This document shows positions 3,789 through 36,426 of a stretch of DNA of 64,000 nucleotides, piece by piece. The notes below the pieces were generated by a model. That model ran no database searches and was not told where the DNA came from. It saw nothing but the letters and a program-made list of their open reading frames with translations. A program made the position numbers and the translations under genes. Each line of letters starts with the position of its first letter. Positions within the stretch are counted from its first letter, which is position 1. The stretch comes from Thermoanaerobaculia bacterium (GTDB lineage: Bacteria; Acidobacteriota; Thermoanaerobaculia; Multivoradales; Multivoraceae): contig OZ243982.1 in the NCBI GenBank assembly GCA_965214805.1, positions 2,915,253 through 2,979,252 on the forward strand, read 5' to 3'.

Positions 3789-3798
3789 GTCTTGGGAA

Positions 3799-4423: not shown

Positions 4424-4762
4424 CTATTCAGGTTGTGCGAAGACGAATGTCGCCGGACACGAGCTTGGGAGAAGCAGATCGCGGGCCTGCGCCAGCTCGC
4501 AGGATTGTCGATTGAGCCTGGACAGAAGTACTGCGCCTTCGGGCACGATCGTCTTGTTGCTCTTCATCGAACTACCAAGGTCCGTGGCCGGCTCGTTTCC
4601 GGCATCGTACGCCGGGAAACTGTAGTGCTCGTAGATGCGCTCGGGCTGGGCGCCAGGTGATAGGATGACACGGTGATGATTCGCCAGATCGCTTGGCGTG
4701 TAGGTCGACCACCCAATGGGGCTCGTCCTGGACGATGCGCAGGTGGTCGGCGCGGATGTCAA
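4424..4762 (-). pseudogene. hsdS: type I R-M specificity subunit HsdS, N-terminal ~85 aa fragment
   Basis: PIGWSTYTPSDLA...RIYEHYSFPAYDAGNEPATDLGSSMKSNKTIVPEGAVLLSRLN matches the first target-recognition domain of HsdS (..HYSIPAFD....G..IKS.K..V....VLLSKLNP). Resemblance ends abruptly after SRLN. Confidence 0.6.
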
Positions 4763-5689: not shown

Positions 5690-5861
5690 CAGTCGATCAT
5701 CGTTCCGTTCACGAGACAGGAATCGGCTGGACGTGCGGCCCGGCTCGATCTCCCGGTACTCCAGCAGGGTCAGGAGGCGGACGATATCAAGGATGCGCAC
5801 CGGACGCTCCGCGCCATGGCGATGTTGGACGCGTACAGGATCGTCTTGACTCCCCGGCTCA

Positions 5862-6297
5862 TCAGGGAGGCGACAGCCTGGTTCCGCGGCGCCTGCCGCG
5901 ACCGCTGCGTTCGTCCCTGACGCCGGGCAAGTCGAAGCCCAGCGCCGTCAGGTTCTCGGCGATGGCGGCGTGGAGCCGCGCAGCTTCGGCCTGCTGCGCC
6001 TGCAACTCGGCGACGAGCCGATTCATCTTGTCCTCGAACGGCTCGCCGTCGTCCTCCGGCGGCGGAGCGCCGACGTACCGGCCGGGGGTCAGCACGTGGC
6101 CGTGCCGGCGTATCTCGTCGATGGACGCGCTCTTTCAGAAGCCGGGCTCGTCTTCACAGGCCGCTACACGGTAGCCGCCGAGCCAGGCGTGATAGGCGGC
6201 TGCGATCCGGGCGATGTCCTCTTCCGTCAGTTCACGATGGGTGCGGTCGACCATGCGGCCGAGCTTGCGGACCCCGATCGGCCCGTCACCGGCCATG
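5862..6297 (-). pseudogene. hsdM: type I R-M methyltransferase HsdM, C-terminal ~130 aa fragment with an in-frame TGA
   Basis: Manual translation gives [91 protein letters not shown]. This is the conserved HsdM tail. A TAG lies just upstream of the homologous part, and no catalytic NPPF region is present. Confidence 0.7.
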
Positions 6298-6638
6298 GCC
6301 TACAGGCAGCCGGCGGTACCCAGGTTCTCTCTCCGAGGCGGTTTCGACTATCTTGAGCACGGGCGGCGTGACCTCTCCCGGCTTTCGACCGGGTGCTGGT
6401 TCAACACCCAAGAGGATACGCCGCCTGATCCAGTTCGCCTGATGCGCCACTTCCGGCAGTAGCTCGAGCCGGTCCGCAGGGTGCCGATTTCCCCTTCTTC
6501 GACATCGTGAATACCGCCTCCTCCAAGGGGGCAGTGTCCACGAACCGGGACAACCCCGTTCACGTCTGAGCGCTGGTTCCGCCAACCTTGAAACATGGTA
6601 CCGTACCCACGCAGCGCTGGCTTCGAGGACTACCAAAG

Positions 6639-6971
6639 ATGATCTGGGAAACGATCGCGTCGTTGAGCGCCGCCGCATCGGCGGCAATCGCCTTCCTCGT
6701 GTGGCGGCAGAAACAGCAAGACCAACAGTATAAACAAGCCGCCAGGGTAGCGACTCTTCGTTTGCTCATATTGCAGTCCGATCTCCAGCGCATACGAAGG
6801 CTCGTTGCGAGCGAGAGATTCGAGGGATTCCATATCGACGCCCTTCTTGAAGGCAACATGCTGGGCACGCAGCAGACGCTGGTCGACGTGCGGACGTTCT
6901 TGCCGGAACTCATACCTGAACTCCGCGGAAAGACGGAGGAACAACATGTTCAAAGAGAGAAGATCACGTAG
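6639..6971 (+). CDS. hypothetical small membrane protein (one N-terminal TM helix plus a helical tail)
   Basis: MIWETIASLSAAASAAIAFLVWRQKQQDQQYKQ... from ATG 6639 within ORF 6588..6971. Local GC is visibly lower (~55%) than the flanks. Confidence 0.45.
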   Translation: MIWETIASLSAAASAAIAFLVWRQKQQDQQYKQAARVATLRLLILQSDLQRIRRLVASERFEGFHIDALLEGNMLGTQQTLVDVRTFLPELIPELRGKTEEQHVQREKIT

Positions 6972-7437
6972 AATTCGCGGTCATGTGGCGGCAGTTCTCA
7001 ATTCTCGGCAGTTGGCGCTGAACGTCGGGTCGTCGCACCATGTGGAAGTCGGCATGCAGTTCGACGTCGTGCATGCGCGCAACCTGGAACTCAAGGATCC
7101 GATCTCGGATGAGTTTCTTGGCAAGCTGGAACTACCCAAGAAGCGCGTGAGAATATCCGAGGTTGCAGAGAAATTCTGCATTGCCAGCACACTGGCCCGG
7201 AAAGTCAATGTGGGGGGACGCGGACCGGGTTGGGATTTCGCGAACATCTATGCTCCTCCGAAGTGGGAAATTCAGTACGATACGCTCAAGAAAAGCAAGT
7301 CCTCCTTTGAAGAGATCGACGAATCGGAGAGCGTCGTCAAGGTTGGCGATCCGGTTGTGGAGGTGGTCACATCGGATACGGCCGAGTCGATGGAGTTCAT
7401 CGGCCAGACGGCATCTGGAGAGGCCCACGTCTCGTGA
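6946..7437 (+). CDS. hypothetical protein, 163 aa
   Basis: ATG 6946 is preceded by GGAGGA at a 5-nt spacing. It overlaps the upstream gene by 26 nt. The protein is MFKERRSRRIRGHVAAVLNSRQLALNVGSSHHVEVGMQFDVVH...VKVGDPVVEV, with no family recognised. It lies in the lower-GC segment. Confidence 0.5.
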   Translation: MFKERRSRRIRGHVAAVLNSRQLALNVGSSHHVEVGMQFDVVHARNLELKDPISDEFLGKLELPKKRVRISEVAEKFCIASTLARKVNVGGRGPGWDFANIYAPPKWEIQYDTLKKSKSSFEEIDESESVVKVGDPVVEVVTSDTAESMEFIGQTASGEAHVS

Positions 7438-7466
7438 CGCGGCGCTGGCAGCCACACGGGCCGAGT

Positions 7467-7518
7467 CGATCTGCTGGCTCGCGTTCGTGTGGCCGAGGTT
7501 CGAACCCGGCAGCGATCG
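7467..7518 (+). other. tRNA-like fragment (T-arm plus acceptor-like stem), possible island att scar
   Basis: CCGAG-GTTCGAA-CCCGG (7493-7509) resembles a T-arm (4/5 bp). It is followed by CAGCGAT, which pairs with ATC(T)GCTG at 7469-7476. It is too short to be a functional tRNA. Confidence 0.25.
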
Positions 7519-7655
7519 ACGGAGACGCGGTCCCGACGCTGGCGGCGCGCACCTTGTCGGGGCCAGCTCGAACTCGTTCGCAGGGAGGCCCGGAGCCTGT
7601 CCGTGGCGGTCTCGGGTGGGCGTGTGATCGATGGGTTCTCCGATGTCGGCGGGGC

Positions 7656-9146
<1,491 letters not shown>

Positions 9147-9149
9147 GGA

Positions 9150-10055
9150 TCAGCCTGACCGGGCGTTCCAGAGAACGCCGTCGGCGAGCAGATCGGAGAT
9201 CAGGCGGGCGATGTCGCCGGCGGCTGCGCTGCCGACCTGGAGCACGTCCTCGTGGTCGACGGGTCCCTCCGCGAGACCGACGCCCATGTTCGTGACCAGG
9301 GAGAAGCCGAGCACGCGCAGCCCCATGTGCCGGGCGGCGATCACTTCCAGAACCGTCGACATGCCGACCAGGTCGACGCCGAGCGCCTGGTAGGCGCGGA
9401 TCTCGGCCGGCGTTTCGTACGAGGGCCCGAGGAGGCCCAGGTAGACCCCTTCGTCCACGCGAATCCCGGCAGCGTGGCCGAGTTCGACGAATCGGCGGCG
9501 GAGGGCCGGATCGTAGGCGCCGGCCATGTCCGGAAACCGGGGCCCCCAGCTTGCCGGATGACGGCCGCGGAGGGGGTTGAGGCCGGTCAGGTTCACGTGA
9601 TCCGAGAGTGCGGCGATCGATCCCGGCGGCAGGTCGGTCCGCAGCGAGCCGGCGGCGTTCGTGATCACGAGCGAAGCGGCGCCGAGGAGGGCCGCGAGGC
9701 GCACCAGGTACACGATCTGCCCTGCCGTGTACCCCTGGTAGGCGTGGAGCCGGCCTCGGCAGCAGAGCACGAACCGGCCGTCGGGCGTTCTGGTCACCTC
9801 GATGGTCGCCGCGTGGCCTTCGATCGCCTCGACGTCGAACGGCAGCACGTCGTCGAACGGCCAGGGGCCGGCTGCCGGCGGGCCGAGGTCGAGGCTCAGG
9901 CCGGAACCGGTGACCAGGAGAGCGTCGGGCCGCGGCCGTCCGGCGTCGAGCCAGCGTCTCCGGCTTGCCTCGAGCTCGACGGCGAGACCTGAGTGCGACC
10001 CTGTATCCGTGTGCGACCCTTCCGTGTGCGACGCTGTATCCTTGCGGAGATTCAC
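9150..10055 (-). CDS. purine nucleoside phosphorylase (PunA/PNP type)
   Basis: LLVTGSGLS...RLHAYQGY...ITNAAGSL...GPSYETPAE...VGMSTVLEVIAA motifs. No start codon lies near the conserved N-terminus, so GTG 10055 is proposed; the start is uncertain. Confidence 0.85.
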   Translation of the reverse strand: MNLRKDTASHTEGSHTDTGSHSGLAVELEASRRRWLDAGRPRPDALLVTGSGLSLDLGPPAAGPWPFDDVLPFDVEAIEGHAATIEVTRTPDGRFVLCCRGRLHAYQGYTAGQIVYLVRLAALLGAASLVITNAAGSLRTDLPPGSIAALSDHVNLTGLNPLRGRHPASWGPRFPDMAGAYDPALRRRFVELGHAAGIRVDEGVYLGLLGPSYETPAEIRAYQALGVDLVGMSTVLEVIAARHMGLRVLGFSLVTNMGVGLAEGPVDHEDVLQVGSAAAGDIARLISDLLADGVLWNARSG

Positions 10056-10140
10056 GGTTCCGATTCCCGGGACAGTTAGGAGTGCGGGGACGATACACGA
10101 CCGGTCCGCGGCGTTGCGGGCGGCGCGCGAGGTGATCCAC

Positions 10141-10689
10141 ATGGCGGGGAACGGACAGCCCCGGGAGTTGATCTCCCGGGAAACGCTGCAGCGGCGGGTC
10201 GCCGAGCTCGCCGCCGAGATAGACCGCGACTATCGGGACAGCGAGGACCTGCTCTGCGTGGGTGTGCTCAAGGGGTCCGTCTTCTTCTTCTCCGATCTGT
10301 TGCAGCGCCTGTCGCGGCCCGTGATGGTCGACTTCTTTCAGACGTCGAGCTATCGGGGTGAGACCACGTCGCCCGGCGAGGTGCGGATCCGTCGCGACCT
10401 GGACCATTCGCTGGCCGGGCGGGACGTGCTGCTGATCGAGGACATCGTCGACACCGGATACACGATGCGGACGATTATGGCGCTGATGGGTTTTCGCGGC
10501 GCTCGTTCGGTGCGGCTCTGCGTCCTGCTCGACAAGGCGTGCAAGCGGGAGACGGCAGTGCAGATCCACTACCGCGGCTTCGAGCTCGACGACGTCTTCG
10601 CGGTCGGCTACGGCCTCGACTACAACGACCGTTACCGGAACCTGCCCTACGTCGGCATGCTGAACGAATCGGCCCTGGAAGCGGAATAG
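10141..10689 (+). CDS. hpt: hypoxanthine phosphoribosyltransferase
   Basis: From ATG 10141: LLCVGVLKGSVFFFSDL and VLLIEDIVDTGYTM (PRPP-binding loop), then YGLDY..RYRNLPY. Confidence 0.9.
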   Translation: MAGNGQPRELISRETLQRRVAELAAEIDRDYRDSEDLLCVGVLKGSVFFFSDLLQRLSRPVMVDFFQTSSYRGETTSPGEVRIRRDLDHSLAGRDVLLIEDIVDTGYTMRTIMALMGFRGARSVRLCVLLDKACKRETAVQIHYRGFELDDVFAVGYGLDYNDRYRNLPYVGMLNESALEAE

Positions 10690-10788
10690 CCAACGCGGCC
10701 CCGGCAGCCCAGGCAGCTCCCGAGACCGCCCCGGGCCGCTTCTGCGTACAGCCCTCTGCGGACAGCTCTGCGGATAGCCTCGCGTGCC

Positions 10789-12009
10789 GTGGGCTTCGTC
10801 TGGCATGTTGCGCTGAGGTACTTCCGCTCGACCCGGGCGGATGCCCACATCCGTGTTCTTTCGTCGCTCACTGCCGGCGGTCTGGCCGTGGGCACGGCGG
10901 CCCTGATCCTGGCCCTGGCGGCGCTCTCGGGCTTCCAGCACCATCTGCTGGAGGACCTCGTGCGGCACCGGCCCGCCTTGCAGGTGGAACTGGCAGCTGG
11001 AGCGGAATCCGCGAGCGGCGCGGCCGGGTCGGCCGCTTCGCTGGTCGACCGGGTAACGGCCGTGGACGGCGTCGCGGCGGTCCAGGAGCTGCTCTACGCC
11101 CGCGGCTGGCTGGTCGACCGGACGGGTGTGGCGGCGGTCGACGTCGTGGGCTACGAGAAGGCGCTGCCAGCATGGATTCCGGCGGCGGGCGGCGCGGCCC
11201 CGGGTCTGGCTGCGGCCCCCGGTCTGATCGTGCCGCTTTCCATTGCCCTGCGGATGGGGCTGGCGGTGGGCGGTTCGGCGAGGGTGGTGTCGCCCCGGTC
11301 CGGATTGACGCCTGTAGGGCCCAGGCCCCGCATGCGGACGCTGCCGGTGGCGGCGGTCTACGACTCCGGCCGCGCGGAGCACGAGCAGCTGCCGGTGCTG
11401 CTGCCCCTGGTGCAGGCGGCCGCGCTCTTTGCAGGCGGTGACCGGCGGCTCGACCTGACCCTTGCCCCGGGCGCCGATCCGGAAGCGGTCGCCGCCGACC
11501 TGCGTGCGGCGATGGACGCGGGCGAAGGCACGGTGACGACCTGGCGGCAGGCCAACCGGGCGTTGCTGTTTGTCCTGCGGCTGGAGAAGGGCCTGGTGTT
11601 CTCGGCGGTGGCGATGATTGTCGCGGTGGCGGCGTTCGCACTGCTCGCGGCGCTGTCCCTGGTGCTGTCCAGCAAGCGTTCCGAGGTCGGCGTGCTGGCG
11701 GCCATGGGAGCGCCGCCGGCCCGTCTGCGGCGGCTCTTTCTGGTGCTGGGCGCGTTGCTTTCGATTGGCGGCGCGGGCGTCGGCGGTGCGCTGGGCGCCG
11801 GCGCGGCGGCTCTGATGGACCGCTTTCGTGTCCTTTCGCTGCCGCCTGACGTCTACCACGTCGACTACGTGCCGTTCCTGGTCCGGGGCTGGGACGTGCT
11901 CGTCGTGCTGGTGTCGACGGTCGTGTTCACGGGCGCCGCCTCGCTGCTGAGCGCGCGCAAGGCGAGCCGGCTGAACCCGGTGGAGGCGATGCGGAGCGTC
12001 CGCACGTGA
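10789..12009 (+). CDS. LolC/LolE-family (FtsX-like) ABC transporter permease
   Basis: 406 aa. N-terminal ALRYFRS...SSLTAGGLAVGTAALILALA, a large periplasmic loop and a C-terminal FtsX-like TM bundle. It overlaps lolD by 4 nt. Confidence 0.85.
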   Translation: MGFVWHVALRYFRSTRADAHIRVLSSLTAGGLAVGTAALILALAALSGFQHHLLEDLVRHRPALQVELAAGAESASGAAGSAASLVDRVTAVDGVAAVQELLYARGWLVDRTGVAAVDVVGYEKALPAWIPAAGGAAPGLAAAPGLIVPLSIALRMGLAVGGSARVVSPRSGLTPVGPRPRMRTLPVAAVYDSGRAEHEQLPVLLPLVQAAALFAGGDRRLDLTLAPGADPEAVAADLRAAMDAGEGTVTTWRQANRALLFVLRLEKGLVFSAVAMIVAVAAFALLAALSLVLSSKRSEVGVLAAMGAPPARLRRLFLVLGALLSIGGAGVGGALGAGAAALMDRFRVLSLPPDVYHVDYVPFLVRGWDVLVVLVSTVVFTGAASLLSARKASRLNPVEAMRSVRT

Positions 12010-12698
12010 TCTTGGTTTCCGGAGTGACCAAGGCGTACCGGGACGGCGAGGTTCGGCGCGAGGTGCTGCGCGGCGTCGATCTCGAGCTTGGCCGCGGCGA
12101 CACGGCGGCCATCGTCGGGCCTTCGGGTTCGGGGAAGTCGACCCTGCTGAACATTCTCGGGGCGCTCGACACTCCCGACACGGGCACCGTGCGCATGGAC
12201 GGGGTCGACGTCTCGGCCCGCAGGCCGGCGGCCCTGGCCGGGTTCCGCAACCGCTCCATCGGCTTCGTGTTCCAGTTTCACCAGTTGTTGCCGGACTTCA
12301 CCGCGCTCGAGAACGTGATCATGCCGGGACGGATCGCGGGCCGGTCCACCGCGTCGTTGCGGGCTCGCGGGCTGGAGCTGCTGGGCCAGGTCGGACTCGG
12401 GGAGCGCGCCGCCGATTTTCCCCAGCAGCTGTCCGGGGGTGAGCGTCAGCGGGTCGCGATCTGCCGCGCGCTGATGCTCGAACCGCCGGTGCTGTTAGCC
12501 GACGAACCGACCGGAAATCTGGACGCGGCCAGCGGAGCGCAGGTGCTGGAGTTGCTGAACGGCCTGCAGCGGCGGCGTCGCACGACGATGGTGCTGGTGA
12601 CGCACAACCCCGAGGTCGCCAGCCGTTGCGGCAGGGTGCTGCGGCTCGAGGGGGGGCGGCTGACGCCGGACCACCCGCCGATCCGGCAGCGTCGATAG
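12006..12698 (+). CDS. lolD: ABC transporter ATP-binding protein, LolD-like
   Basis: Walker A GPSGSGKST, signature LSGGERQR, Walker B LLADEPTGNLD. Confidence 0.85.
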   Translation: MILVSGVTKAYRDGEVRREVLRGVDLELGRGDTAAIVGPSGSGKSTLLNILGALDTPDTGTVRMDGVDVSARRPAALAGFRNRSIGFVFQFHQLLPDFTALENVIMPGRIAGRSTASLRARGLELLGQVGLGERAADFPQQLSGGERQRVAICRALMLEPPVLLADEPTGNLDAASGAQVLELLNGLQRRRRTTMVLVTHNPEVASRCGRVLRLEGGRLTPDHPPIRQRR

Positions 12699-12787
12699 AC
12701 TGTCGTCAGGAGCAGACCCGGACGCTTCCAGAGGCGTGAGGCCCCGAGCCTCATCGAAGTGAAGCGCTCGAGCGAAGCAGGGAAGCC

Positions 12788-15307
12788 GTGTTCGAGAAAT
12801 ACAGCGAAAAAGCGCGTCGGGCTCTCTTCTTCGCCCGTTACGAGGCGAGCAAGCTGGGCAGCCGGGTCATCGAGTCGGAGCACATCCTGCTCGGCATTCT
12901 GAGGGAAGGGGAGGACTCGCTCGTCGAACTGCTCGAGCGACTCGAGGTCAGGCCGGAGGAGCTGCGGCGCGAGATCGAGGGAGAACGGGTGTTCGTGGAG
13001 CGCATCTCCTCGACCGCGGAGCTGCCCCTCTCGGAGGAGTCGAAGAAGATCCTCGCGTACGCCTCGCACGAGGCGGAGAGGATGGTCCACTCCTCGGTCG
13101 GTTCGGAGCACCTGCTGATCGGCGTGCTTCGGGTCGAGGGCTGCCTGGCGAGGCGAATCCTGGGGCAGCACGGGTTCGAGGTCGCGGGTGTGCGCGAAGA
13201 GGTCGCGCAAGTGGCGCGAAAACGAGCCGATCGACGCGAGAAGCAGGAACTGCCGTTCCTGAGCGAGTTCGGCCGCGACCTCACCGCGCTCGCCCGGCGG
13301 GACCGGTTCGACCCGCTCATCGGTCGCGAGCAGGAGGTCGCCCGGATCGTCGAGGTTCTCGCGCGGCGCACCAAGAACAACCCCATCCTGCTTGGCGAAC
13401 CGGGCGTGGGGAAGACGGCGATCGTGGAAGGGCTGGCCCAGCGCGTGGAGCGGGGCCGGGTGCCGCGATTCCTGGCGCACAAGCGCATCATCGCTCTCGA
13501 CCTCTCGCTGCTGGTCGCCGGGACCCGGTACCGGGGCCAGTTCGAGGAGCGCCTCAAGGGCGTCCTCAAGGAGCTCGAGGAGGGCGAGGACGTGCTCGTG
13601 TTCATCGACGAGATTCACGCGCTGGTCGGGGCGGGCTCGGCCGAGGGATCTCTCGACGCGGCGAACATCCTCAAGCCGGCCCTGTCGAGAGGCGACATCG
13701 CCTGCATCGGCGCCACGACAGGGCGGGAGTACCGGCGCTGCATCGAGAAGGACCGTTCGCTGCTGCGGCGTTTCCGGGCGATCCGGGTCGATCCGCCGAC
13801 CGCCGACGAGACGTACGACATCCTGGTCGGACTCAGGGAGCGCTACCAGGACTTCCACGAGGTGATCTACGACGATGGGGCTCTCAGGGCCGCGGTCGCC
13901 GGATCGAACCGCTACATCCCCGACCGGTTCCAGCCCGACAAGTCGATCGACGTGATGGACGAGGCCGGGGCCAGGGTCAAGCTTCGCCGGGCGAGGGGCG
14001 CCATGCGGACGCGGCGGATCGAGGCCGGGATCCGGCAGGCGGTTGCCGAGATGAAGGCGGCGATCTCGGACCGGGACTTCGACTGCGCGGTCCGCTGCCG
14101 GGAGCGCGAAATCGAACTGCGGGAAGATCTGGCGAACATCGGACGTTTGCACGACGGAGGCCATGGTGATCGAGTCGTGACTGCCCAGGATGTGGAGGAG
14201 GTGATCGCCTCCTGGACCGGCGTGCCCGTGGCGGCTGTCCGCGGCGACGAGGCCCGGCGTCTGATGAACATGGAGGACGCGCTGCGGCAGCGGATCGTGG
14301 GCCAGGAGCGGGCCGTCCGTGCGATCTGCCGCGCCGTTCGCAGGTCGCGTCTCGGCGTCTCGGATCCCCGGCGCCCGGTCGGTTCCTTCATCTTCCTGGG
14401 GCCGAGCGGCGTCGGCAAGACGGAAGTGGCGCGGCGGCTCGCCGAGTTTCTCTTCGGCAGTCGGAACGCCCTGTTGCGATTCGACATGAGCGAGTACATG
14501 GAGAAGCACGCCGCGTCCAGGCTGATCGGTTCTCCGCCGGGCTATGTCGGCCACGAGGAGGGCGGTCAGCTCACCGAACGGGTGCGCCGTCAGCCGTACT
14601 CGCTGATCCTGTTCGACGAGATCGAGAAGGCGCATCCCGACATCTCGAGCCTGTTGCTGCAGATCCTGGAGGAGGGGACGCTGACGGACGCCTGCGGCAA
14701 CCGGATCGACTTCCGCCATTCCCTCGTGCTCCTGACCTCGAACCTGGGCAGTCAGCTGGTCCTCAAGGGGGGGCGGATGGGCTTCGGCGGCATCTCGTCG
14801 GATGGCGACTTCGCCCGCGTACGCGAGGAGATCAAGGCCGAACTGCGGCGTTCCTTCAGCCCCGAGTTCATCAACCGGATCGACGAGACGATCGTGTTCG
14901 ATCCGCTGGGCCGGGACGAGCTGCGAGCGATCGTCGATCTGCTCCTGTCGGACGTGAACCGGACGCTCGCTGCACGCGGTCTGACGGTCGACGTGACTTC
15001 CGCGGCCCGTGACTGGCTGCTCGAACAGGCGGGGACCGACCCGTCGACCGGCGCCCGGCCGCTTCGCCGGACGATCCAGCGGCACGTTCAGGATGCGGTG
15101 TCCGATCTGCTGATCGAGCGTGCCGGAGCGGCGATCCGTCGGATCCGGGTCGATCTGGCGCCGAGCTCCGGCCTGGAGGCGGACGGCGACGGTTCGCTCG
15201 TCGACCGCGGTCTGGTCCTGGAAGCGGCCGGAAGCGGCGGAGCGCAACCCGCGGCCGGCGCGCGTCCGGCAGCGCACGAGGAGGAGCCTGCCCATGCCGA
15301 ATCCTGA
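12788..15307 (+). CDS. clpC: ATP-dependent Clp protease ATP-binding subunit, ClpC-like
   Basis: 839 aa. Double Clp_N repeat ([12 protein letters not shown] / [12 protein letters not shown]), two AAA+ modules ([16 protein letters not shown]) and a UVR-like middle region. Confidence 0.9.
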
Positions 15308-26798: not shown

Positions 26799-26875
26799 GC
26801 GCCTGTAGCTCAGCAGGATAGAGCGGTGGATTCCTAATCCACAGGTCGGGGGTTCGAGTCCCTCCAGGCGCACCA
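26799..26875 (+). tRNA. tRNA-Arg (anticodon CCT)
   Basis: Hand-folded cloverleaf. Acceptor GCGCCTG/CAGGCGC, D-arm GCTC..GAGC, anticodon stem GTGGA/TCCAC with loop TTCCTAA, T-arm GGGGG-TTCGAGT-CCCTC (one G-U pair), discriminator A and an encoded CCA. Confidence 0.9.
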
Positions 26876-29449: not shown

Positions 29450-29611
29450 GGGCCAGAGACTGCCGGCGACCGTCGTCGTGCTACAGTCAGTCACTCCAAT
29501 GGTTTGACCGGCTCAGGCCCGGCCCGTGTGCCCCGGGCATTGACCCGGACAACGACCAACGGTGCGAACTGTCCTTCAGTCCTTGAAGCTGCCTGATCAG
29601 GAACGACGTCA

Positions 29612-29627
29612 CCCCCCCCCCCCCCCC
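29612..29627 (+). repeat. homopolymeric C16 tract
   Basis: Counted directly: 16 consecutive C inside the ~530-bp gap between deoA and the propeller gene. Confidence 0.95.
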
Positions 29628-29983
29628 GGTCACGGACGAGCCTGGCTGAACTTGTCGTCCATCCAGGCGCGGGCGAGCGGGGAGTCACCCACTCCGAGCG
29701 TCGGCGGGGTGAATGTCGGGGCCTGCACCGACTGCCACCGGCGTTCGTTTGGGCTGATCCACGACTCAGGTGGCGCTCCGCGTCGCTCGCTTCGTTGCAG
29801 GCACACGCCGACCACAGCTTTCTCGTTGGCCCTGACGGACGTCTGTTGCTCTCGACCAGCGGCCTGGTGAGCCGTCAGCACGTCGAGAAGCACCTCTTGG
29901 GCATAGGATCGAGTACGCGGCCTCGTCCGTCACACGCAGGGTCCTGGCCGTGTCGAATCTGGACGACGAAGTGGAGGCGCTTC

Positions 29984-31135
29984 ATGCCGGCTCGCAGCAT
30001 CGGATGGCTCGCCGAGCGTTGCAGACTGGCAGCAGGCCGGTTGTTTTCCATTGGACACTCATCTCGTTTCGGTCGTGTCCGCCGTCCGTGGACGGCAGGA
30101 GTGCTCGCAGTACTGCTTGGTGCAGGGTCTGCGGCTGCTTCAGACGAGATCCATGAGGGGACGTTCGAGGCCGAACGGATTTTCGAGACACTCGCGCTGA
30201 ACGGTGCGCATCGTCTGATATCCAGGGGCGACGGGTTCATGGTCCTGGACCGCATGAACCACCGTCTTCTGGAGCTGAGTGCCTCCGGTGATGTCGTACG
30301 CCAGTACGGTCGCGTGGATCAGGCGCCGGGTGAGATGCAGTTTCCGTTTGGCTACGCGATCGGCCCTTCTGGCACGATTCGAGTCGTGACCTCCTACGGT
30401 CTGTTCCTCGTGCACTCCTTTTCTCCGGACGGAGAGCTGCTGAAGACCATTCAGCAGGGAGCGACACTTGAGGAGGCGGAGATCTACAGGAGTTACTCGA
30501 TCGCGGCCGACTCTCGCGACCGGTTCTACCTGAACCAGCCGCGGCTGGGGTCAGTCCTCACGGTCTACTCGGCCGAAGGCGAGAAGCAGGCCGCAGTTGG
30601 CGATCTGCTGGTCCCGGAGGATGTTTTCCCTGATTGCGACCGGCACATCCGCTGTCGAGATCGCCGCTTTGCCACACGGATCAACCGGGTGGTCATGACC
30701 TCGGGCCAGGCAGACTCGATCGTGATGGCTTTCACGGCTGCTCCGATCGTACGCAAGTACTCGGCAAGCGGAGGCCTGGAGTTCGAGACACGGCTTCAGG
30801 GCGCCCTGGTCGACGAACTCGTCGAACTCGCCATGCAGGAACCCGAGGCCTGGGAGCCCCACGTCGCCGAGAGCCTGCAGACGGATGGCATCAGTGCACT
30901 TGCCATGCTCCAGGACGTGGCCGTGGAACCTCGGACAGGGTTGATCTACTGCCTGGTCGGAAGTCGTCAGTTGCATGTGCTTTCGCGAACCGGAGAGCTC
31001 GTGGCCACGCTTGCACAGGTCGAGGGAAGGCCGGGCGTTTCTTCTCTTTCGGTATCGGACGGCACGGCTTATCTGACGACGTTCCTGGCGACCTATCGCG
31101 CGACGCTGGACCGCTCGATCCTGGAGAACATCTGA
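29984..31135 (+). CDS. secreted beta-propeller protein (NHL-repeat-like)
   Basis: ATG 29984 with GGAGG 6 nt upstream. N-terminal signal-like VRRPWTAGVLAVLLGAGSAAASDE. Repeated blade-like units (GEMQFPFGYAIGPSGTIRVV.., FYLNQPRLGSVLTVYSAEGE.., GLIYCLVGSRQLHVLSRTGE..). GC is lower than the flanks. Confidence 0.65.
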   Translation: MPARSIGWLAERCRLAAGRLFSIGHSSRFGRVRRPWTAGVLAVLLGAGSAAASDEIHEGTFEAERIFETLALNGAHRLISRGDGFMVLDRMNHRLLELSASGDVVRQYGRVDQAPGEMQFPFGYAIGPSGTIRVVTSYGLFLVHSFSPDGELLKTIQQGATLEEAEIYRSYSIAADSRDRFYLNQPRLGSVLTVYSAEGEKQAAVGDLLVPEDVFPDCDRHIRCRDRRFATRINRVVMTSGQADSIVMAFTAAPIVRKYSASGGLEFETRLQGALVDELVELAMQEPEAWEPHVAESLQTDGISALAMLQDVAVEPRTGLIYCLVGSRQLHVLSRTGELVATLAQVEGRPGVSSLSVSDGTAYLTTFLATYRATLDRSILENI

Positions 31136-31284
31136 TGGTTGTCATGTTCATGAACGGCGTCGCCTCTGTACCGATTGCGTCGGGTGCTGATTGCGTCGCG
31201 ACGATCGGCGTGGCGTGCGGCGGTCAGAACTACTGCTGCGTGGCGGGTTCCGACTGGTGCATCGCCCGGGATTGCAGTCGTTGA
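31135..31284 (+). CDS. 49-aa six-cysteine peptide (candidate secreted/modified peptide)
   Basis: MVVMFMNGVASVPIASGADCVATIGVACGGQNYCCVAGSDWCIARDCSR. The ATG overlaps the propeller stop (TGATG), and GGAGA lies ~8 nt upstream. GC3 is about 75%. In the track it appears only as the tail of the artefactual ORF 30634..31284. Confidence 0.4.
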   Translation: MVVMFMNGVASVPIASGADCVATIGVACGGQNYCCVAGSDWCIARDCSR

Positions 31285-31313
31285 TCGGTCTTGCGCCCGT
31301 GGGGCCTTGAACG

Positions 31314-32609
31314 GTGGGTTCGTTGTGGTCGATCGCCCTGAAGCGATGCCGCCTGACCGTGCGCAGTGGCTGGTTTCTGGGGGCCTGGGCCGTTGGCGGC
31401 GTGATGGCCGTTGCCACGGTCTCGGTCTCCTGGCTGAACTACCAGGAACGGGTTTCGTTGTTCGAGGCCAGAGAGCTCGCTCGGGCGTTGGCGGTCGACG
31501 GGGCCCAGACCTGGCGCGGTGTGGAGCTGGGTGTGGAGCGACCGCCTGCTCCCTTGAGCCTGCTGAGTCGGGGCGTGGGGGAGGAACTGGGATCGAGCGC
31601 GACGGTCCGGGGGCGCTTCGGTCCGGTGGCGTACTCCAGGCGCGACGCGCCGGCGACGGACGAGGCCCGGCGGGGGAATCTCGATTTCTCGTGGGCGCTC
31701 GCTCTGGTCGTCGGGTTCACGTGCGTGTTCTCGGGTCACGCCGTGATCAACGGGGAGAAGCAGAAGGGCACTCTCAAGCAGCAGCTTGCGCGAGGCCTGC
31801 CGCGATCGAGCCTGTTGCTCGGTGAGTTCCTGGGAGGCCTGCTGACGGTCGCCGTGCCATGCGCGGTTCTCTTTCTCGGCTTCTCGACCTGGGCGGTTCT
31901 GGCCGGACCGGGACTCGCCGGAGAGGACTGGCCACGTGTCGGGCTCTGGTTCGTGCTGGTCGTCCTGTACGGGTGTTTCTGGCTGGCCGCTTCGCTTGCG
32001 TTGTCCGTCGTGTGCCGGGAGCCGGCCACGTCCCTGGTCGCGGGGGTGCTGGCGTGGGCAGTGTCTGCGGCGCTCTATCCGCAGTTGGCGGGGTGGGCTG
32101 CTGCCCGGGCGGCGCCGCCGGTGCCGGGGCAGTACGAACACCTGGCGGATACGAGGCCCGGTCTTTCCCCCGGAAGGGCAGGGGCCGAGCGGACATCGGA
32201 CGACGACCGCGAGCGGTCCCTGGCGCGCCGGAACGTGCGGTCGGCCGAGTATCGGTTGTACCGGCGGTTTGCAGCGCTTCTGCCGGTGACGGCGATGCTC
32301 GATGCCGGTCAGGTCCTGGCGGGCACCTCGCCCGCCGATCATGAGTGGTTTCTCCGTCACGTGGACGACGCGGAGCGGTCCTTCCGGGCGTGGCAGGCAG
32401 AGAAGCTCGAGCGCTACCCGGAACGGGAGTTCCGAGTGGACAGCCGCGTTCCGCTCGACATCGAAGGCCTGCCCGACCCGGTGTGGCAGGACGCCTCCTT
32501 GACCTGGTCGCTTCGTCAGGCGGGGCTGCCGTTAGCCGCACTCCTGTTCGGCGCCACCGGGCTCGTGCTCGTCGCGGGTGTCGGGTTCGAGAGGCTGGAC
32601 GTCCGCTGA
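31314..32609 (+). CDS. ABC-2-type transporter permease (large, DUF3526-like architecture)
   Basis: 431 aa. N-terminal TM, then GEKQKGTLKQQLARGLPRSSLLLGEFLGG (ABC-2 signature region), multiple TMs, a soluble segment and a terminal TM. Confidence 0.75.
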   Translation: MGSLWSIALKRCRLTVRSGWFLGAWAVGGVMAVATVSVSWLNYQERVSLFEARELARALAVDGAQTWRGVELGVERPPAPLSLLSRGVGEELGSSATVRGRFGPVAYSRRDAPATDEARRGNLDFSWALALVVGFTCVFSGHAVINGEKQKGTLKQQLARGLPRSSLLLGEFLGGLLTVAVPCAVLFLGFSTWAVLAGPGLAGEDWPRVGLWFVLVVLYGCFWLAASLALSVVCREPATSLVAGVLAWAVSAALYPQLAGWAAARAAPPVPGQYEHLADTRPGLSPGRAGAERTSDDDRERSLARRNVRSAEYRLYRRFAALLPVTAMLDAGQVLAGTSPADHEWFLRHVDDAERSFRAWQAEKLERYPEREFRVDSRVPLDIEGLPDPVWQDASLTWSLRQAGLPLAALLFGATGLVLVAGVGFERLDVR

Positions 32610-32624
32610 GCGGGCGGGGAATCC

Positions 32625-34082
32625 GTGCTCGGTCTTCTGATCCGTTGGGAGCTGGTACGGCACCTCCGGAACTACCGGCTCCTGGTGCTCCTCGTGGGCG
32701 GTCCGGTGCTGATGGCGGCCGCGGCATTGTCCCACGCCGCGGCCGTTCACGACCAGCGCGCCGCCAGACCCGGCCTGTCTCGGGCAGCGGAGAGTGCAAC
32801 GAACCTCGAACAGGCCGTCGTGCTGCGCCCGCCTTCACGGCTGGGGTTCCTCGGTGCGGCGCCTCGGGAACAGTGGGGAGAAGCCGCGGTGGTGCGCCCT
32901 CACCTCCAGGACGTCATGGAGGCGGACGTCTCGGAGCGCTCGTACCTCTTCGCGGCGGTACCTCTCGACTGGACGGCGGTCGTCATCTTCTTCTACAGCC
33001 TGATGGCGGTCGCCGTCAGCTACGACGCGGTGGCTGGAGAGCGGGCCGCCGGGACGCTGCGGGTCCTGGCCAGCCGACCGATCGGGCGGATGCCCCTGCT
33101 TCTGGGCAAGATCCTGGGCTGCTTCTTCGTGGTGGCCGGCTCCCTGGTCCTGGGCGCCCTGACCGGGACCCTGGTGGCGGTCGCGGTCTCGGGACAGGGC
33201 CTGGTCCTTTCCGACGCTGTCCTGTTGGCGCTCGCGGTGGCGCAGATCCTTGCCTTCCTGTTGGTCAACGTGCTGATCGGGATGGCCGCTTCGGTCACGG
33301 CGTCGACGCCGGAGCAGGCCCTGCAGCGAGGCCTGGGAGCGTGGACGGTTCTTGCTCTCGTGGTGCCGGGCCTCGTGGTCGTGACGGGCGCGGCGCTCTA
33401 CCCGGCGCCCTCCGAACTGGCCTTCCAGCGGAATCTCGCCATTCATGAACAGGGTTACAGAATGCGATTGGGCGTATCTTCCATGTCGGTCACCGAGATC
33501 GTGAGGACTCCGGGGATCTCCGTCGCCGAGAAGCACCGTCGTGTCGAGGCTCTGGAAGCGGAGATTCAGGCCGATCAGGAGGCCGCGCTCGCCGAGATGG
33601 AACGGGGCTACGCCGAGCTGCGGCGGGACCACCTTCTGCGGTCGGGGCTCCAGGAAGAATGGGCGGCTCGCTGGGGCGCCCTGTCGCCCCACACTCTTCT
33701 GCGCCGTTCCCTGAACCGGCTTGCGCTCGCCGGCTCGAGCGGACGCCGGGAGTTCCGGCGCCAGGTCGGGCAGTTCGAGCCGCTCTTCACCGCGTTCGTC
33801 CTGGAGCAGCGGCAGGTACACCGGGAAGATGCTCTGGAGAGCGGCCCCAGGACATACACGACCGATGACGACGGCGAGAAGTACGAACTCCGTGGTCTGT
33901 CCCGGATCGACTATTCGGAAGTACCGATTGCGGCTGACGACTTTCCCCGATTCACCTGGCGGCCTCCGGGCGCTGCCGCGCTTGCCGCTCGGACGCTTCC
34001 CGACCACTTGTGGATGCTTCTGTTCGTGGTAGCGGCGGGCGCCTTCACGCTCTGGCGGTTCCACGGATACGACTGCCGATGA
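32625..34082 (+). CDS. ABC-2-type transporter permease, second paralogue
   Basis: 485 aa. AGERAAGTLRVLASRPIGRMPLLLGKILG, a TM bundle, a ~200-aa soluble segment and a C-terminal TM. Confidence 0.75.
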   Translation: MLGLLIRWELVRHLRNYRLLVLLVGGPVLMAAAALSHAAAVHDQRAARPGLSRAAESATNLEQAVVLRPPSRLGFLGAAPREQWGEAAVVRPHLQDVMEADVSERSYLFAAVPLDWTAVVIFFYSLMAVAVSYDAVAGERAAGTLRVLASRPIGRMPLLLGKILGCFFVVAGSLVLGALTGTLVAVAVSGQGLVLSDAVLLALAVAQILAFLLVNVLIGMAASVTASTPEQALQRGLGAWTVLALVVPGLVVVTGAALYPAPSELAFQRNLAIHEQGYRMRLGVSSMSVTEIVRTPGISVAEKHRRVEALEAEIQADQEAALAEMERGYAELRRDHLLRSGLQEEWAARWGALSPHTLLRRSLNRLALAGSSGRREFRRQVGQFEPLFTAFVLEQRQVHREDALESGPRTYTTDDDGEKYELRGLSRIDYSEVPIAADDFPRFTWRPPGAAALAARTLPDHLWMLLFVVAAGAFTLWRFHGYDCR

Positions 34083-35626
34083 CGGGTGCCGGCAGAGGGA
34101 TTCTCGGAGCGGGACAGAGCGCCGCGATCCTGGGCGGCGTCGCCGTCGTCCTGTTGCTGGGCGCAGCCGAGGAATCACGCTCCCAGCCAGTCCCCAATGC
34201 GCCTGGTGCGCCAATCCGCAATGCGCAGGAACGGCGGCTGGAGTTCGCGGAGGCTCGCATCGGTCACGAGGACGCCGAGCGGCGGTTGGCGCGTGCGAGG
34301 GAGTTGCACGAGAACGGCCTCATCTCGGAAGCCGACCTCGACACGCACGAAACGAGCCTGCGTCTGGCGGAGGTCCAGATGAGGCGGGCCTGGACGAGGC
34401 TGGCCCTCGCCGATCCGGAGATCATCCTCCGCTCGGCGAAGAAGTTCCAGGGTGAAGACGGCGGCGTGCGGGTGGAACTCGATCTGATCGCCCGCTGGAC
34501 CCTGGGGCTCGAAACGAACGCTGCGAAGGTTGCTGACAGCGGCGTCGGCCAACCGCTGGACCTGCCGGTGATCGATGGCGTCTCGAACGTTGTCATCAGT
34601 CTGAAGACGACGCGGGGCTACCAGGAAGGGGTTCTGATCGATCCGACGATCGTCTCGGTGCCCTACGAGCAGCGCGTGCCGCTGATGCCGTTCGACGAGC
34701 CCGTGCCGGTGACCTTCGGTCTGCTGCTGCCCGACGTTCAGGAGGTGCTGGTCGAGTTGCGCTACAACGACGAGGTCCATCTTCGCCAGGTGCTGCTGGG
34801 CAAGGGCGTCGATGCCGGCGGAGGGCTGGTGATGCGCTCCGAACAGGTCACGCTCGATGTCGAACTGGGCCAGGAAGCCGCCTACGATCTCAGCCTGGAG
34901 CGGTTCGACGACCGGAGCGCCATCTACAGCGTGACAGCCGAGGGTCTGCCGCCGGAGATCTCCTTCAAGGCTTCGGATCCCGATTCCGGGGCGTCGTTCA
35001 GTCAGGTGTTCTTCCCGGAGCAGGTCATGGACCGGAAGCTGCGGCTGGCGTTGACGATGCCCGGTCGGCCCACCGAGGCGGTGCAGCCGGGACGGGCGAT
35101 CCGGTTCGCGGTCCGGCTCGATCCGGAAGACGCCGCGGGCGGCGCACGGGGATCCACGCCGGCGGGACGGCTGGAGCTGGCGGTCGTTCCCCGCGGAGTG
35201 GCGGAGCTCGAGGTGGAGGCCGCGAACCTGTACCACGAGGTGGCGCGCGGTGATTCCGTTCGTCTCGACGTCCGGGTCGTCAACTCGGGCAGCGGAAACC
35301 TGGAACAGGTCGAACTCAGGGTGGACGCGCCGTTCGAATGGTCCACGGAAGTGGCCCCGCAGCTCTTCCCGGCCCTCGAACCGGGGACGGAGGAAACGGC
35401 CGTGGTCGTTCTGTTTCCGCCGCCGGACATCGTCGTGGGCGACTACGAGGCGTCGATTCAGGCCGGAAGCCTGTCGGGCGACCAGCTCGTGGAGAGCGTC
35501 CCGAAGACCTTCCGCGTGCATGTTGCCGCGACCTCGAATCCGTGGCTCGTCGCCGTGCTCGCGACCGCTGTGGTCGGGGCAGTGGCCGGCGTGACCTGGG
35601 CTGGATTGAGACTGAGCAGACGCTGA
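34079..35626 (+). CDS. membrane-anchored extracytoplasmic protein with a NEW3/CARDB-like Ig-fold domain
   Basis: The ATG overlaps the permease stop (ATGA). N-terminal hydrophobic segment and a coiled-coil-like stretch. VVNSGSGNLEQVELRVDAPFEWS...LEPGTEETAVVVLFPPPDIVVGDYEASIQA is typical of NEW3/CARDB domains. C-terminal TM is NPWLVAVLATAVVGAVAGV. Confidence 0.6.
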   Translation: MTGAGRGILGAGQSAAILGGVAVVLLLGAAEESRSQPVPNAPGAPIRNAQERRLEFAEARIGHEDAERRLARARELHENGLISEADLDTHETSLRLAEVQMRRAWTRLALADPEIILRSAKKFQGEDGGVRVELDLIARWTLGLETNAAKVADSGVGQPLDLPVIDGVSNVVISLKTTRGYQEGVLIDPTIVSVPYEQRVPLMPFDEPVPVTFGLLLPDVQEVLVELRYNDEVHLRQVLLGKGVDAGGGLVMRSEQVTLDVELGQEAAYDLSLERFDDRSAIYSVTAEGLPPEISFKASDPDSGASFSQVFFPEQVMDRKLRLALTMPGRPTEAVQPGRAIRFAVRLDPEDAAGGARGSTPAGRLELAVVPRGVAELEVEAANLYHEVARGDSVRLDVRVVNSGSGNLEQVELRVDAPFEWSTEVAPQLFPALEPGTEETAVVVLFPPPDIVVGDYEASIQAGSLSGDQLVESVPKTFRVHVAATSNPWLVAVLATAVVGAVAGVTWAGLRLSRR

Positions 35627-35715
35627 ACGGCAATGGTCGGGAGCGTCGGCTGAACCAGGATCCGGAGAGAGCAAGGCAGGTGGAGAAGTTGAAGCAGGAA
35701 ACGCAGAGCGAGGCG

Positions 35716-36426
35716 ATGATCGAGGCGGTCGACCTTCGCATGGTGTTCGGGGACGGCACGAAGGCGCTCGACGGGGTGAGCTTCGAGGTTCTCCGAGGCG
35801 AGATCTTCGGACTTCTCGGCCCGAACGGCGCTGGCAAGACGACGACGATCAACCTGTTTCTCGACCTCATTCAGCCGACCGGCGGCAAGGCTCTGATCAA
35901 GGGAATCGAGGTCGCCCGCGAACCGCGCCGGGCGAAGAGCTGCGTGGAGCTCATCCCCGAGAATGTTGCGCTCTATCCCACCCTGACGGCGATGGAGAAC
36001 GTGGAGTTCCTTGGCGCCGTCGGCCTCGGGCGGGGGCCGGAACGCGACCGCATCCGGCAGGCGCTGTTGCGGGTCGGCCTGCCGGAGGAGGTCCACGACC
36101 GGCGCGTGGCCACGTTCTCCAAGGGAATGCGGCAGAAGACCGGTCTTGCCGTCGCCCTCCTCCGGCAGGCCCCGGTGGTGCTGCTGGACGAGCCGACGTC
36201 GGGCCTGGATCCCGCTGCCGCCGCCGACCTGGTCGAGCTGCTCGATCAGCTTCGGAGCGACGGGGCGGCGATCCTCCTGTGTACGCACGACATCTTCCGG
36301 GCGCAGCAGCTCTGCGACCGAATCGGCATCATGCGCCAGGGTAGGATGCAGTCCATCCTGGATCGCAAGGTACTCGACGAGAGCGATCTGGAGCAGGTCT
36401 ATCTGGAGACGATGGTCCAGGTCTGA
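35716..36426 (+). CDS. ABC transporter ATP-binding protein
   Basis: Walker A GPNGAGKTT, signature FSKGMRQK, Walker B VLLDEPTSGLD, H-loop CTHD. Confidence 0.9.
   Translation: MIEAVDLRMVFGDGTKALDGVSFEVLRGEIFGLLGPNGAGKTTTINLFLDLIQPTGGKALIKGIEVAREPRRAKSCVELIPENVALYPTLTAMENVEFLGAVGLGRGPERDRIRQALLRVGLPEEVHDRRVATFSKGMRQKTGLAVALLRQAPVVLLDEPTSGLDPAAAADLVELLDQLRSDGAAILLCTHDIFRAQQLCDRIGIMRQGRMQSILDRKVLDESDLEQVYLETMVQV

Follow-up and report, generated by a model that had tools for sequence, protein, structure and literature searches.

The 64,000-nucleotide stretch of Thermoanaerobaculia DNA analysed here (hereafter the window) contains, on its forward strand, a block of six open reading frames (ORFs) coding for an NHL-type propeller, a small peptide with six cysteines, two ATP-binding cassette (ABC) permeases of the ABC-2 type, a NEW3-domain protein and an ABC ATPase, preceded by the remnant of a seventh, thioredoxin-like gene (Table 1). 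Comparison with homologous loci shows that the block is a degraded copy of a seven-gene cassette, the intact copies of which would direct the synthesis of Sec-exported peptides, their folding by a thioredoxin-like/NHL protein pair, and immunity to or export of these peptides by an ABC-2/NEW3 system, with the peptides acting as interbacterial toxins; we place the probability of this interpretation at roughly 0.5. Pfam comparison assigned ABC2_membrane_2 and DUF3526 domains to both permeases, an NPCBM_assoc/NEW3 domain to the fifth protein and an ABC_tran domain to the sixth, and returned no match for the propeller and the 49 amino acid peptide of the window. NCBIfam gave sub-threshold hints of a ScyF-type NHL protein (propeller), an RND_mfp coiled coil (NEW3 protein) and a DrrA/GldA/lantibiotic-type protein (ATPase). 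The layout described in an earlier note on this DNA, namely six same-strand ORFs with TGATG (31133-31137; propeller/peptide) and ATGA (34079-34082; permease 2/NEW3 gene) overlaps, gaps of 15-90 nt and a C16 tract, agrees with the coordinates, the remaining intergenic gaps being 29, 15 and 89 nt. The six cysteines of the 49 amino acid ORF were likewise recovered, as were the two ABC-2 permeases, the NEW3 protein and the ATPase it had named, the latter proteins through their Pfam matches.

Table 1. Features of the cassette copy in the window (positions are those of the window).
Feature	Position	Strand	Remark
Cassette leader, retained, probable promoter region	29489-29615	+	79% identity to L010 8861-8995
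C16 homopolymer, window-specific expansion	29612-29627	+	aligns to 'CGCC' in L010
Pseudogene remnant of membrane-anchored thioredoxin-like CxxC gene	29729-29983	+	
NHL propeller gene, 383 amino acids	29984-31135	+	intact
Damaged six-Cys peptide gene, 49 amino acids	31135-31284	+	deletion chimera
ABC-2 permease 1 with DUF3526 loop, 431 amino acids	31314-32609	+	
ABC-2 permease 2 with DUF3526 loop, 485 amino acids	32625-34082	+	
NEW3-domain membrane-anchored periplasmic accessory protein, 515 amino acids	34079-35626	+	
ABC ATPase, 236 amino acids	35716-36426	+	DrrA/ABCA/NosF-like

The state of the window copy was assessed against the homologous locus L010, which is 96% identical and harbors an insertion sequence (IS), an intact gene for a 326 amino acid thioredoxin-like protein and two peptide genes. 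The leader at L010 8861-8995 lies directly upstream of the intact thioredoxin-like gene. Positions 29729-29935 of the window match L010 9329-9547 (88% identity), after which the alignment jumps to L010 9952; the 5′ part of the thioredoxin-like gene, encoding the transmembrane (TM) anchor, is deleted, and so is an internal segment of 405 bp in which the CxxC domain is encoded, and a tblastn search of the window recovered residues 131-170 of 331 of the thioredoxin-like protein and no more. What had been taken for a 530-bp non-coding leader is therefore in part correctly described, as a leader with a C16 tract is present, and in part the remnant of a seventh gene. Downstream of the propeller, a 365-bp deletion relative to L010 has removed one peptide gene and joined the 5′-most seven codons of an upstream ORF to codon 19 onwards (the final 42 codons) of the second one. 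In the resulting 49 amino acid product, half of the signal peptide is missing, namely its charged N-region and the greater part of its hydrophobic core, and an Arg takes the place of a Trp that is conserved in all other aligned members. The translational coupling of propeller and peptide read from the TGATG overlap is not conserved, the overlap being mostly a by-product of this deletion; the peptide gene as called in the majority of homologous loci has its own start codon, approximately 35-130 nt past the propeller stop codon.

The propeller and the ABC/NEW3 module of the window are intact and under purifying selection. The ratio of nonsynonymous (dN) to synonymous (dS) substitution rates between the window and L010 ranges from 0.04 to 0.26 across the propeller, permeases, NEW3 protein and ATPase (propeller: 0.17; permease 1: 0.19; permease 2: 0.15; ATPase: 0.04). 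The peptide stretch shows a dN of 0.17 and a dS of 0.38, against a dN of 0.004-0.02 and a dS of 0.05-0.10 in its neighbors, and this excess divergence suggests allele exchange rather than simple decay. At the nucleotide level the mature-peptide stretch (window 31189-31281; L010 11571-11663) has diverged by approximately 18%, compared with approximately 4% in the flanking genes, and the window peptide allele is about equally close to peptide P0043 and to the second peptide of L010. The window copy is a degraded non-producer, in which the upstream remnant and the 49 amino acid ORF are probable pseudogenes, and its genotype would be that of an immune non-producer. The earlier reading of the block as a working module does not hold for this copy, given the thioredoxin-like remnant, the truncated signal peptide and the Trp to Arg replacement.

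Searches by tblastn with a complete reference cassette revealed a recurring layout, in which a gene for a protein of approximately 330-360 amino acids overlaps the start of the propeller gene by approximately 10-14 nt and is followed by the propeller gene, one small ORF or a pair of them, the genes for permeases 1 and 2, and those for the NEW3 protein and the ATPase. The intact cassette comprises seven genes, encoding a thioredoxin-like CxxC protein, an NHL propeller, the peptide(s), two ABC-2/DUF3526 permeases, a coiled-coil/NEW3 protein and an ATPase, with one or two peptide genes per cassette and five in the distant locus L046. Gene order and spacing are kept in at least 12 distinct loci. 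The cassette is very rare. Among 5.8 billion clusters, propeller homologues at ≥44% identity number six, all in identical gene order, and the NEW3 protein has 15 homologues (all ≥46% identity), those of which that were fetched sit in this cassette. A full HMMER scan of 1.84 billion representatives yielded 17 representatives of the peptide family, and a genome scan showed that five species-level representatives are metagenome-assembled genomes (MAGs) of Thermoanaerobaculia. A scan of the JGI metagenomes with the NEW3 alignment produced no match, and one with the permease 2 alignment produced one weak fragment and nothing more. In at least five loci, genes for BlaI, a BlaR1-type M56 protease and a 215 amino acid protein with a weak LuxR-type helix-turn-helix (HTH) domain are located upstream. 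The cassette was found in three unrelated genomic contexts and adjoins an IS in L010, where this IS, with rve/HTH_Tnp_1 genes, separates it from deoA. Its differing chromosomal sites across genomes suggest that it represents an island, and it is mobile, polymorphic and found mainly in Thermoanaerobaculia (Acidobacteriota).

No characterised family of transporters or peptides in Pfam, NCBIfam, PDB or the literature searched corresponds to the encoded set, and among these sources no transporter family with a known non-peptide substrate, an identity that the earlier note had allowed for, was found to account for it. No relevant report emerged from literature searches on DUF3526, NEW3 with ABC-2, prokaryotic knottins or Cys-rich peptides of Acidobacteriota. 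The statement that this combination was not recognizable as a described system is borne out, and no earlier description of the cassette combination or the peptide family was found in Pfam, NCBIfam, PDB and the searchable literature.

The peptides are defined by the framework C-x6-8-C-x3-6-CC-x6-C-x4-C, present in all 23 members examined, in which the last two loop lengths are fixed. Invariant positions in the family alignment are C20, C28, G29, G30, C34, C35, A37, C42 and C47. The precursors begin with a typical Sec signal peptide, consisting of a K/R-rich N-region, a hydrophobic core and an AxA-type cleavage site, which is followed by a mature part of approximately 30 residues (L003: GWCSSGDEICGGDGMCCFAGFGMCFAWDCSK; L010: ADCATTTGVVCGGQGYCCMAGFNWCIVWDCSR). 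The signal peptides are conserved, in contrast to the hypervariable mature loops; the net charge of the mature part ranges from -4 to +2 and the Thermoanaerobaculia members are rich in aromatic residues. The cysteine framework corresponds to that of knottins, the I-IV, II-V, III-VI disulfide connectivity of a knot being putative here. AlphaFold2 models of the mature part have four short strands and a predicted local distance difference test (pLDDT) score of 83-89. Comparison of the peptides against Pfam and NCBIfam, and of the peptide hidden Markov model against PDB, gave no match. A lipoprotein reading of the peptide was rejected, as no member has G, A or S, in a lipobox context, immediately before its first Cys.

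Six-frame scanning of 17 sequences (the 64-kb window and 16 loci) showed that the strict framework pattern is confined to these genes, with no false positives. Furthermore, almost all homologous loci have a small Cys-rich ORF, its cysteines at invariant positions, in the interval separating the propeller gene from that of permease 1, which runs counter to the outcome that the earlier note had named as refuting. It is highly improbable that the 49 amino acid ORF is a chance ORF in GC-rich DNA, situated within what would then be a five-gene operon. Spurious ORFs are numerous in high-GC DNA and the window ORF has no normal signal peptide, but more than 12 loci have a homologue with invariant Cys spacing at the equivalent position, and in the sequences scanned the framework occurs nowhere else. 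At the level of the family, a chance origin is refuted by the alignment and the framework scan, the window ORF being a damaged derivative.

The thioredoxin-like protein consists of an N-terminal anchor, a TlpA/ResA-like domain without CxxC, and a second domain in which a CxxC and two additional cysteines are invariant. The assignment is based on a match to PDB 2m72 (E 0.0016) and on weak ResA/Redoxin matches that are consistent across homologues (ResA: three of the four homologues scanned; E 3e-4 to 0.02). In TlpA/ResA proteins the CxxC lies at the N-terminus of helix 1; here the canonical position reads 'LLLYAxRxPS' and the invariant CxxC is located approximately 130 residues downstream, in the second domain. 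Its proposed partner is a six-bladed NHL propeller, as shown by profile comparison with the Thin, TRIM71 and TRIM2 NHL domains in PDB (E 1.7e-23 to 3e-15) and by an AlphaFold2 model (pLDDT: 76) for which Foldseek retrieved the TRIM2/Brat NHL domains (E ~1e-14; probability: 1.0). The N-terminus of the propeller reads, by eye, as a signal peptide; the propeller of the window is probably exported, and is intact. Residues 211-235 (window 30614-30688) form an invariant Arg-rich helical insertion, C-x5-C-x-D-x-RF-x2-R-x-NR, the two cysteines of which are not kept in the distant L046 homologue. This Arg-rich insertion, set against the mostly anionic mature peptides, is a possible binding surface. The L046 locus (52% GC) contains a thioredoxin-like gene (E 3e-20) in which the CxxC is conserved and which overlaps a propeller gene (E 3e-45), followed by five tandem divergent peptide genes. 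Since L046 keeps the thioredoxin-like, propeller and peptide genes, this trio is taken to be the core of the cassette.

Both permeases match PF12679 above the gathering score (permease 1: E 4e-23; permease 2: E 1e-24), with a weak DUF3526 match in permease 1 and a clearer one (E 1.6e-7) in permease 2. A hydrophobicity scan indicated five or six segments with two large loops between them; in permease 1 five segments pass the scan and a sixth is presumed, the loops falling at approximately 40-122 and 265-405. These large loops would be periplasmic. The ATPase matches PF00005 (E 6e-30), scores 204 bits against TIGR01188 (drrA), which is under the cut-off, and is related in PDB to ABCA7/ABCA3 (E 1e-58) and NosF (E 2e-36). 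The module has the properties of an ABC-2 (type V) exporter, with ABC2_membrane-family permeases and a separate DrrA/ABCA-type nucleotide-binding domain (NBD). The NEW3 protein is composed of an N-terminal anchor, a coiled coil, a beta-rich region, the NEW3 domain (E 5e-13), a C-terminal TM segment and an invariant LSRR tail. Residues 50-111 give a weak match to the RND_mfp coiled coil (E 1e-4; 21 bits against a cut-off of 95), and a search of PDB with its profile found no relative. With TM segments at 8-26 and 490-508, the protein previously termed a NEW3-type surface protein retains its NEW3 domain and is better viewed as periplasmic and anchored in the inner membrane at both ends. Alignments and the hydrophobicity scan indicate an export signal or membrane anchor in each cassette product.

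The NBD similarity to ABCA-type proteins suggests lipid-like substrates, and the ABC-2/NEW3/ATPase module could as such constitute an envelope transporter, for a lipid, a polysaccharide or a surface-layer component, that is functionally unlinked to the neighboring trio. NEW3 proteins are commonly found beside ABC-2 transporters in archaea and Gram-positive bacteria that lack such peptides, in L046 the trio has no ABC module beside it, and the two blocks have separate recombination histories. We nevertheless consider this explanation improbable, as the blocks are contiguous, on the same strand and tightly spaced in those Thermoanaerobaculia loci whose contig reaches both, the NEW3 protein family (15 clusters) was encountered in no setting other than this cassette, the variable mosaic segment extends across the two blocks, and the module moves with the trio into three contexts.

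A second proposal derives from NosY, which is the sole solved relative of the permease (E 3.5e-5), and from the presence of NosF among the ATPase matches. The cassette would then encode a periplasmic redox or metal machine, in which the ABC-2 complex serves as a NosDFY-like, non-transporting mechanotransducer driving the NEW3 protein or the propeller, and the peptides, with their six invariant cysteines, carry thiols or metals and are maintained in reduced form by the TlpA-like protein. BlaI, encoded upstream in several loci, and CopY belong to one Pfam family. TlpA/ResA-type thioredoxins normally act as reductants, preparing Cu sites (works cited in PMC6107167). The NosY match is, however, limited to the generic ABC-2 TM core (residues 116-251), and neither a gene for NosD, NosL, NosZ, MNIO or another metallochaperone nor any His/Met-rich motif is present in the loci. 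Furthermore, carriers and chaperones are usually conserved, unlike these hypervariable, multicopy and frequently lost peptides, rendering this proposal quite improbable, slightly more so than the envelope transporter.

The peptide gene (approximately 180 nt) has been inactivated independently in at least four lineages, with several kb of ABC genes intact in the same loci. These comprise the 365-bp deletion in the window, the absence of the gene in L011/L012, where the thioredoxin-like gene also has an internal deletion, a 1-bp frameshift in L044 and a 2-bp frameshift in L040. For L011/L012, the intactness of the ABC genes holds for one of two duplicated modules, the other being damaged. The region at 4456-14700 of these loci carries a complete permease 1-permease 2-NEW3-ATPase set, followed by the thioredoxin-like gene in truncated form, the propeller gene and another pair of permeases; in the second module, a NEW3 fragment runs in frame into an ATPase sharing 99% identity with that of the complete set. 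L038 (7657-12367) displays the reverse pattern, with an intact peptide gene, truncated BlaR1, HTH, thioredoxin-like, propeller, permease 1, NEW3 and ATPase genes, and no permease 2.

Polymorphism in the cassette is mosaic. Between L003 and L044, identity is 95-99% through the BlaI, BlaR1 and HTH genes and 94% at the 3′ end of the ATPase gene, and falls to 55-70% from the propeller through the NEW3 gene. The NEW3 and permease alleles are mutually only approximately 45-65% identical. By analogy, this pattern resembles the deep allelic polymorphism of toxin/immunity loci. Hypervariable mature loops behind conserved signal peptides, in a mosaic locus, would also be expected of secreted signals, and the peptides could be pheromones or kin-recognition "pherotypes" that are folded by the thioredoxin-like protein and propeller and exported by the ABC module, their polymorphism reflecting signal-receptor diversification. 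This reading accommodates the anionic, hydrophobic character of the peptides, which is atypical of membrane-active antimicrobial peptides, and the BlaR1-like M56 protease and BlaI, a sensor/repressor pair, which with the HTH protein are encoded directly upstream in at least five loci. The BlaR1-like sensor is, however, 95% identical between L003 and L044, against 54% for their peptides, and is hence not a peptide-specific receptor; the cassette encodes no other receptor candidate. The tandem array of five paralogues in L046 and the repeated loss of the peptide with retention of the pump are better suited to toxin and immunity, and we regard a signalling role as unlikely.

Outside the cassette, the upstream neighbor in the window is a deoA-type nucleoside phosphorylase gene and the downstream neighbor is cinA, as assigned through the annotated, 96% identical L010, which supports the housekeeping flanks given previously. 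A tRNA-Arg(CCT) gene is located at 26799-26875, 3.1 kb upstream of the cassette. The GC content of 52-58% noted earlier for sampled 60-nt stretches does not describe the block, which has 66.9% GC against 68.5% for the remainder of the window; clearly lower values (62%) are confined to the genes of the propeller and the peptide, and comparable stretches are found outside the block as well. The lowest GC content of the window, at approximately 3500-4000 and 6000-6700 (58-62%), is lower than that of the cassette. Horizontal transfer argued from GC content alone was rejected as too weak, and the status of the cassette as an island is instead derived from its differing genomic contexts and the IS in L010. 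The C16 tract is the only run of at least eight G or C in the window and sits in the leader, approximately 45 nt upstream of the thioredoxin-like gene start as placed in L010; the tract may mark a site prone to slippage, or else be an artefact of homopolymer assembly. Neither an Rfam match nor a sigma-70 consensus was found in the leader, and terminator-like matches did not exceed the shuffled expectation.

Distant propeller homologues (25-31% identity) of Aminicenantes, Planctomycetota and other bacteria were considered as an extension of the family and rejected, as they mostly lack Cys-rich neighbors and are located beside MacB-like permeases or unrelated genes. A possible exception is L018 (22-1325), from an Aminicenantes MAG, in which an NHL propeller (25% identity) is overlapped through ATGA by an 84 amino acid ORF encoding a signal peptide, six cysteines in a different spacing and the C-terminal sequence ...CQWPNAY. 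In L046, a second, reordered set is encoded at 1786-4000 and 6214-7208, comprising a DUF5128 six-bladed propeller, a 181 amino acid membrane-anchored protein, two secreted peptides with two cysteines each and Pro-rich tails, a split third propeller and a Ser/Thr-kinase-like gene. Modules combining propellers with secreted Cys-containing peptides may represent a wider theme. An unrelated 96 amino acid secreted ORF with nine cysteines is found in L014 (20722-21012), approximately 4 kb downstream of the cassette and past a groEL-type neighborhood.

The reading that we favor, in which intact cassettes produce a secreted peptide toxin together with its maturation and immunity or export genes, is preferred because the signal peptides are conserved, the mature loops hypervariable, the peptide genes arrayed, the alleles ancient and the non-producers retain the pump. 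One to five precursors with Sec signals ending in an AxA-type motif would be exported to the periplasm, where the peptides of approximately 30 residues would be folded into three-disulfide mini-proteins by the thioredoxin-like CxxC protein and the NHL propeller. The genes of these two proteins, through their overlap of approximately 10-14 nt, may constitute a split version of the thioredoxin/NHL architecture of NHLRC2 and SOQ1. The heterodimeric ABC-2 transporter, with the ATPase and the NEW3 protein, would clear the peptide from the membrane or periplasm in a LanFEG-like immunity function or, alternatively or in addition, drive the folded peptide out of the periplasm, in the way that MacAB-TolC handles enterotoxin STII. 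The peptide would finally act outside the cell, most likely as an interbacterial toxin. The suggestion of a peptide production/immunity module made in the earlier note is still the best reading of the family, backed by the repeated peptide losses with retained ABC genes and by mosaic hypervariability, although the copy on which it was based is a non-producer.

Several observations weigh against this interpretation. Typical antimicrobial peptides are cationic, whereas the mature peptides here range from anionic to neutral and have a hydrophobic or aromatic character, and a Foldseek search with the 60 amino acid peptide model assigned no fold (best E 4.8). The recognizable thioredoxin-like domain is the one without CxxC, and the CxxC domain has no recognized fold. 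As membrane-anchored thioredoxins of the TlpA/ResA type are usually reductants, the redox direction could be either. The absence of an ABC-2 module beside the L046 peptides makes the ABC/NEW3 module a lineage-specific partner of the trio, and no outer-membrane factor or TolC-like gene was found in the loci, although one could be encoded elsewhere. In addition, L003 and L008 share 70-80% identity in the thioredoxin-propeller-peptide block and 53-61% in the permease-NEW3 block, and the ABC module is therefore not in strict co-variation with the peptide. Some of the frameshifts are possibly assembly errors, and the loss of the peptide in the window is recent, as shown by the 96% identity to L010, and retention of its ABC genes is weak evidence by itself.

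In its most specific form, which we advance tentatively, the proposal is that the cassettes encode the first bacterial knottin-type secreted mini-proteins, matured by a split thioredoxin-NHL system and serving as polymorphic interbacterial toxins, together with a new ABC-2/DUF3526/NEW3 immunity or expulsion pump. If true, these peptides would form a new class of Sec-dependent disulfide-rich toxins in the Acidobacteriota, a phylum whose antagonistic repertoire is, to our knowledge, almost unexplored, and would provide a bacterial source of knottin-like scaffolds. A thioredoxin/NHL propeller pair would be tied to a concrete peptide substrate, which would aid work on NHLRC2/SOQ1-type proteins, whose substrates are poorly known, and DUF3526 permeases and the NEW3-domain ABC accessory protein would gain a first biological context. 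The loss of peptides with retention of the pump would represent natural producer and immune-cheater dynamics in uncultured bacteria. For the window itself the message is modest, in that the upstream remnant and the 49 amino acid ORF should be annotated as probable pseudogenes.

Among known systems, LanFEG/LanI resembles the cassette in having two ABC-2-type permeases and an ATPase beside a secreted antimicrobial-type peptide, in a separate extracytoplasmic protein that could sequester the peptide, and in non-producers that keep the immunity genes. The cassette permeases are, however, approximately twice the size, with DUF3526 loops, and are accompanied by an extra NEW3 protein, and the Cys-rich peptide is Sec-dependent, with no leader-peptide protease or transporter. 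The ATPase scores 143.7 bits against the LanF model TIGR03740 (galliderm_ABC; cut-off 309.75), the LanE/G models gave no match, the permeases matching only generic ABC-2 models and DUF3526, and no lanthipeptide precursor or LanB/C/M synthetase genes are present in the gene calls and Pfam matches of the fetched loci. The LanFEG-like layout noticed earlier therefore stands as an analogy and fails as a family assignment, given these sub-cut-off scores and the missing lanthipeptide genes. The enterotoxin STII, a small Cys-rich peptide, is exported by Sec, acquires disulfides in the periplasm and is expelled from there by the ABC pump and periplasmic adaptor of MacAB-TolC (PMC5985334), a pathway to which that proposed here would be similar. 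In contrast to MacB, which is a type VII (FtsX-like) protein with four TM helices and a fused NBD, the cassette encodes an ABC-2/type V system with a separate NBD; its putative adaptor is weakly related to membrane fusion proteins (E 1e-4), there is no TolC-like gene at the locus, and its oxidoreductase is dedicated, whereas STII uses the housekeeping DsbA.

NHLRC2 provides a precedent for a thioredoxin/NHL redox module (PMC6107167), and both NHLRC2 and the plant protein SOQ1 pair, in fused form, a thioredoxin-like CxxC module with a six-bladed NHL propeller, SOQ1 in addition being membrane-anchored and working on a small protein in an extracytoplasmic compartment. The cassette differs in encoding the two parts in separate, overlapping genes and in its two-domain thioredoxin-like protein, with the CxxC in the second domain. 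Neither NHLRC2 nor SOQ1 was retrieved by the propeller profile in PDB or among the 50 best Foldseek matches, and the resemblance is one of architecture only. Bacterial NHLRC2 homologues are reported to have no conserved operon context (PMC6107167), unlike the cassette pair, which adjoins a conserved candidate substrate. In NosDFY, of which NosY is the closest solved permease, an ABC-2 complex similarly works on periplasmic partners without transport across the inner membrane; the cassette differs in its heterodimeric permeases with DUF3526 loops, the likeness being confined to the TM core, and NosD beta-helix, NosL and NosZ domains are absent from the cassette at every locus. No Pfam domain of an MNIO (DUF692) or radical-SAM maturase, as in bufferin and SCIFF systems, is found in any locus. 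Membership in the LanFEG, MacAB, NosDFY, canonical TlpA, NHLRC2, bufferin and SCIFF systems is thus not supported. The peptides share with knottins, such as framework VI/VII conotoxins and spider toxins, the C-C-CC-C-C arrangement, a mature part of approximately 30 residues, conserved signal peptides, hypervariable loops and tandem arrays, and differ in being bacterial and Sec-exported, without a propeptide and without sequence similarity to any PDB chain. The components of the cassette that do conform to described types are the NHL propeller, the ABC-2 exporter and the knottin framework of the peptides.

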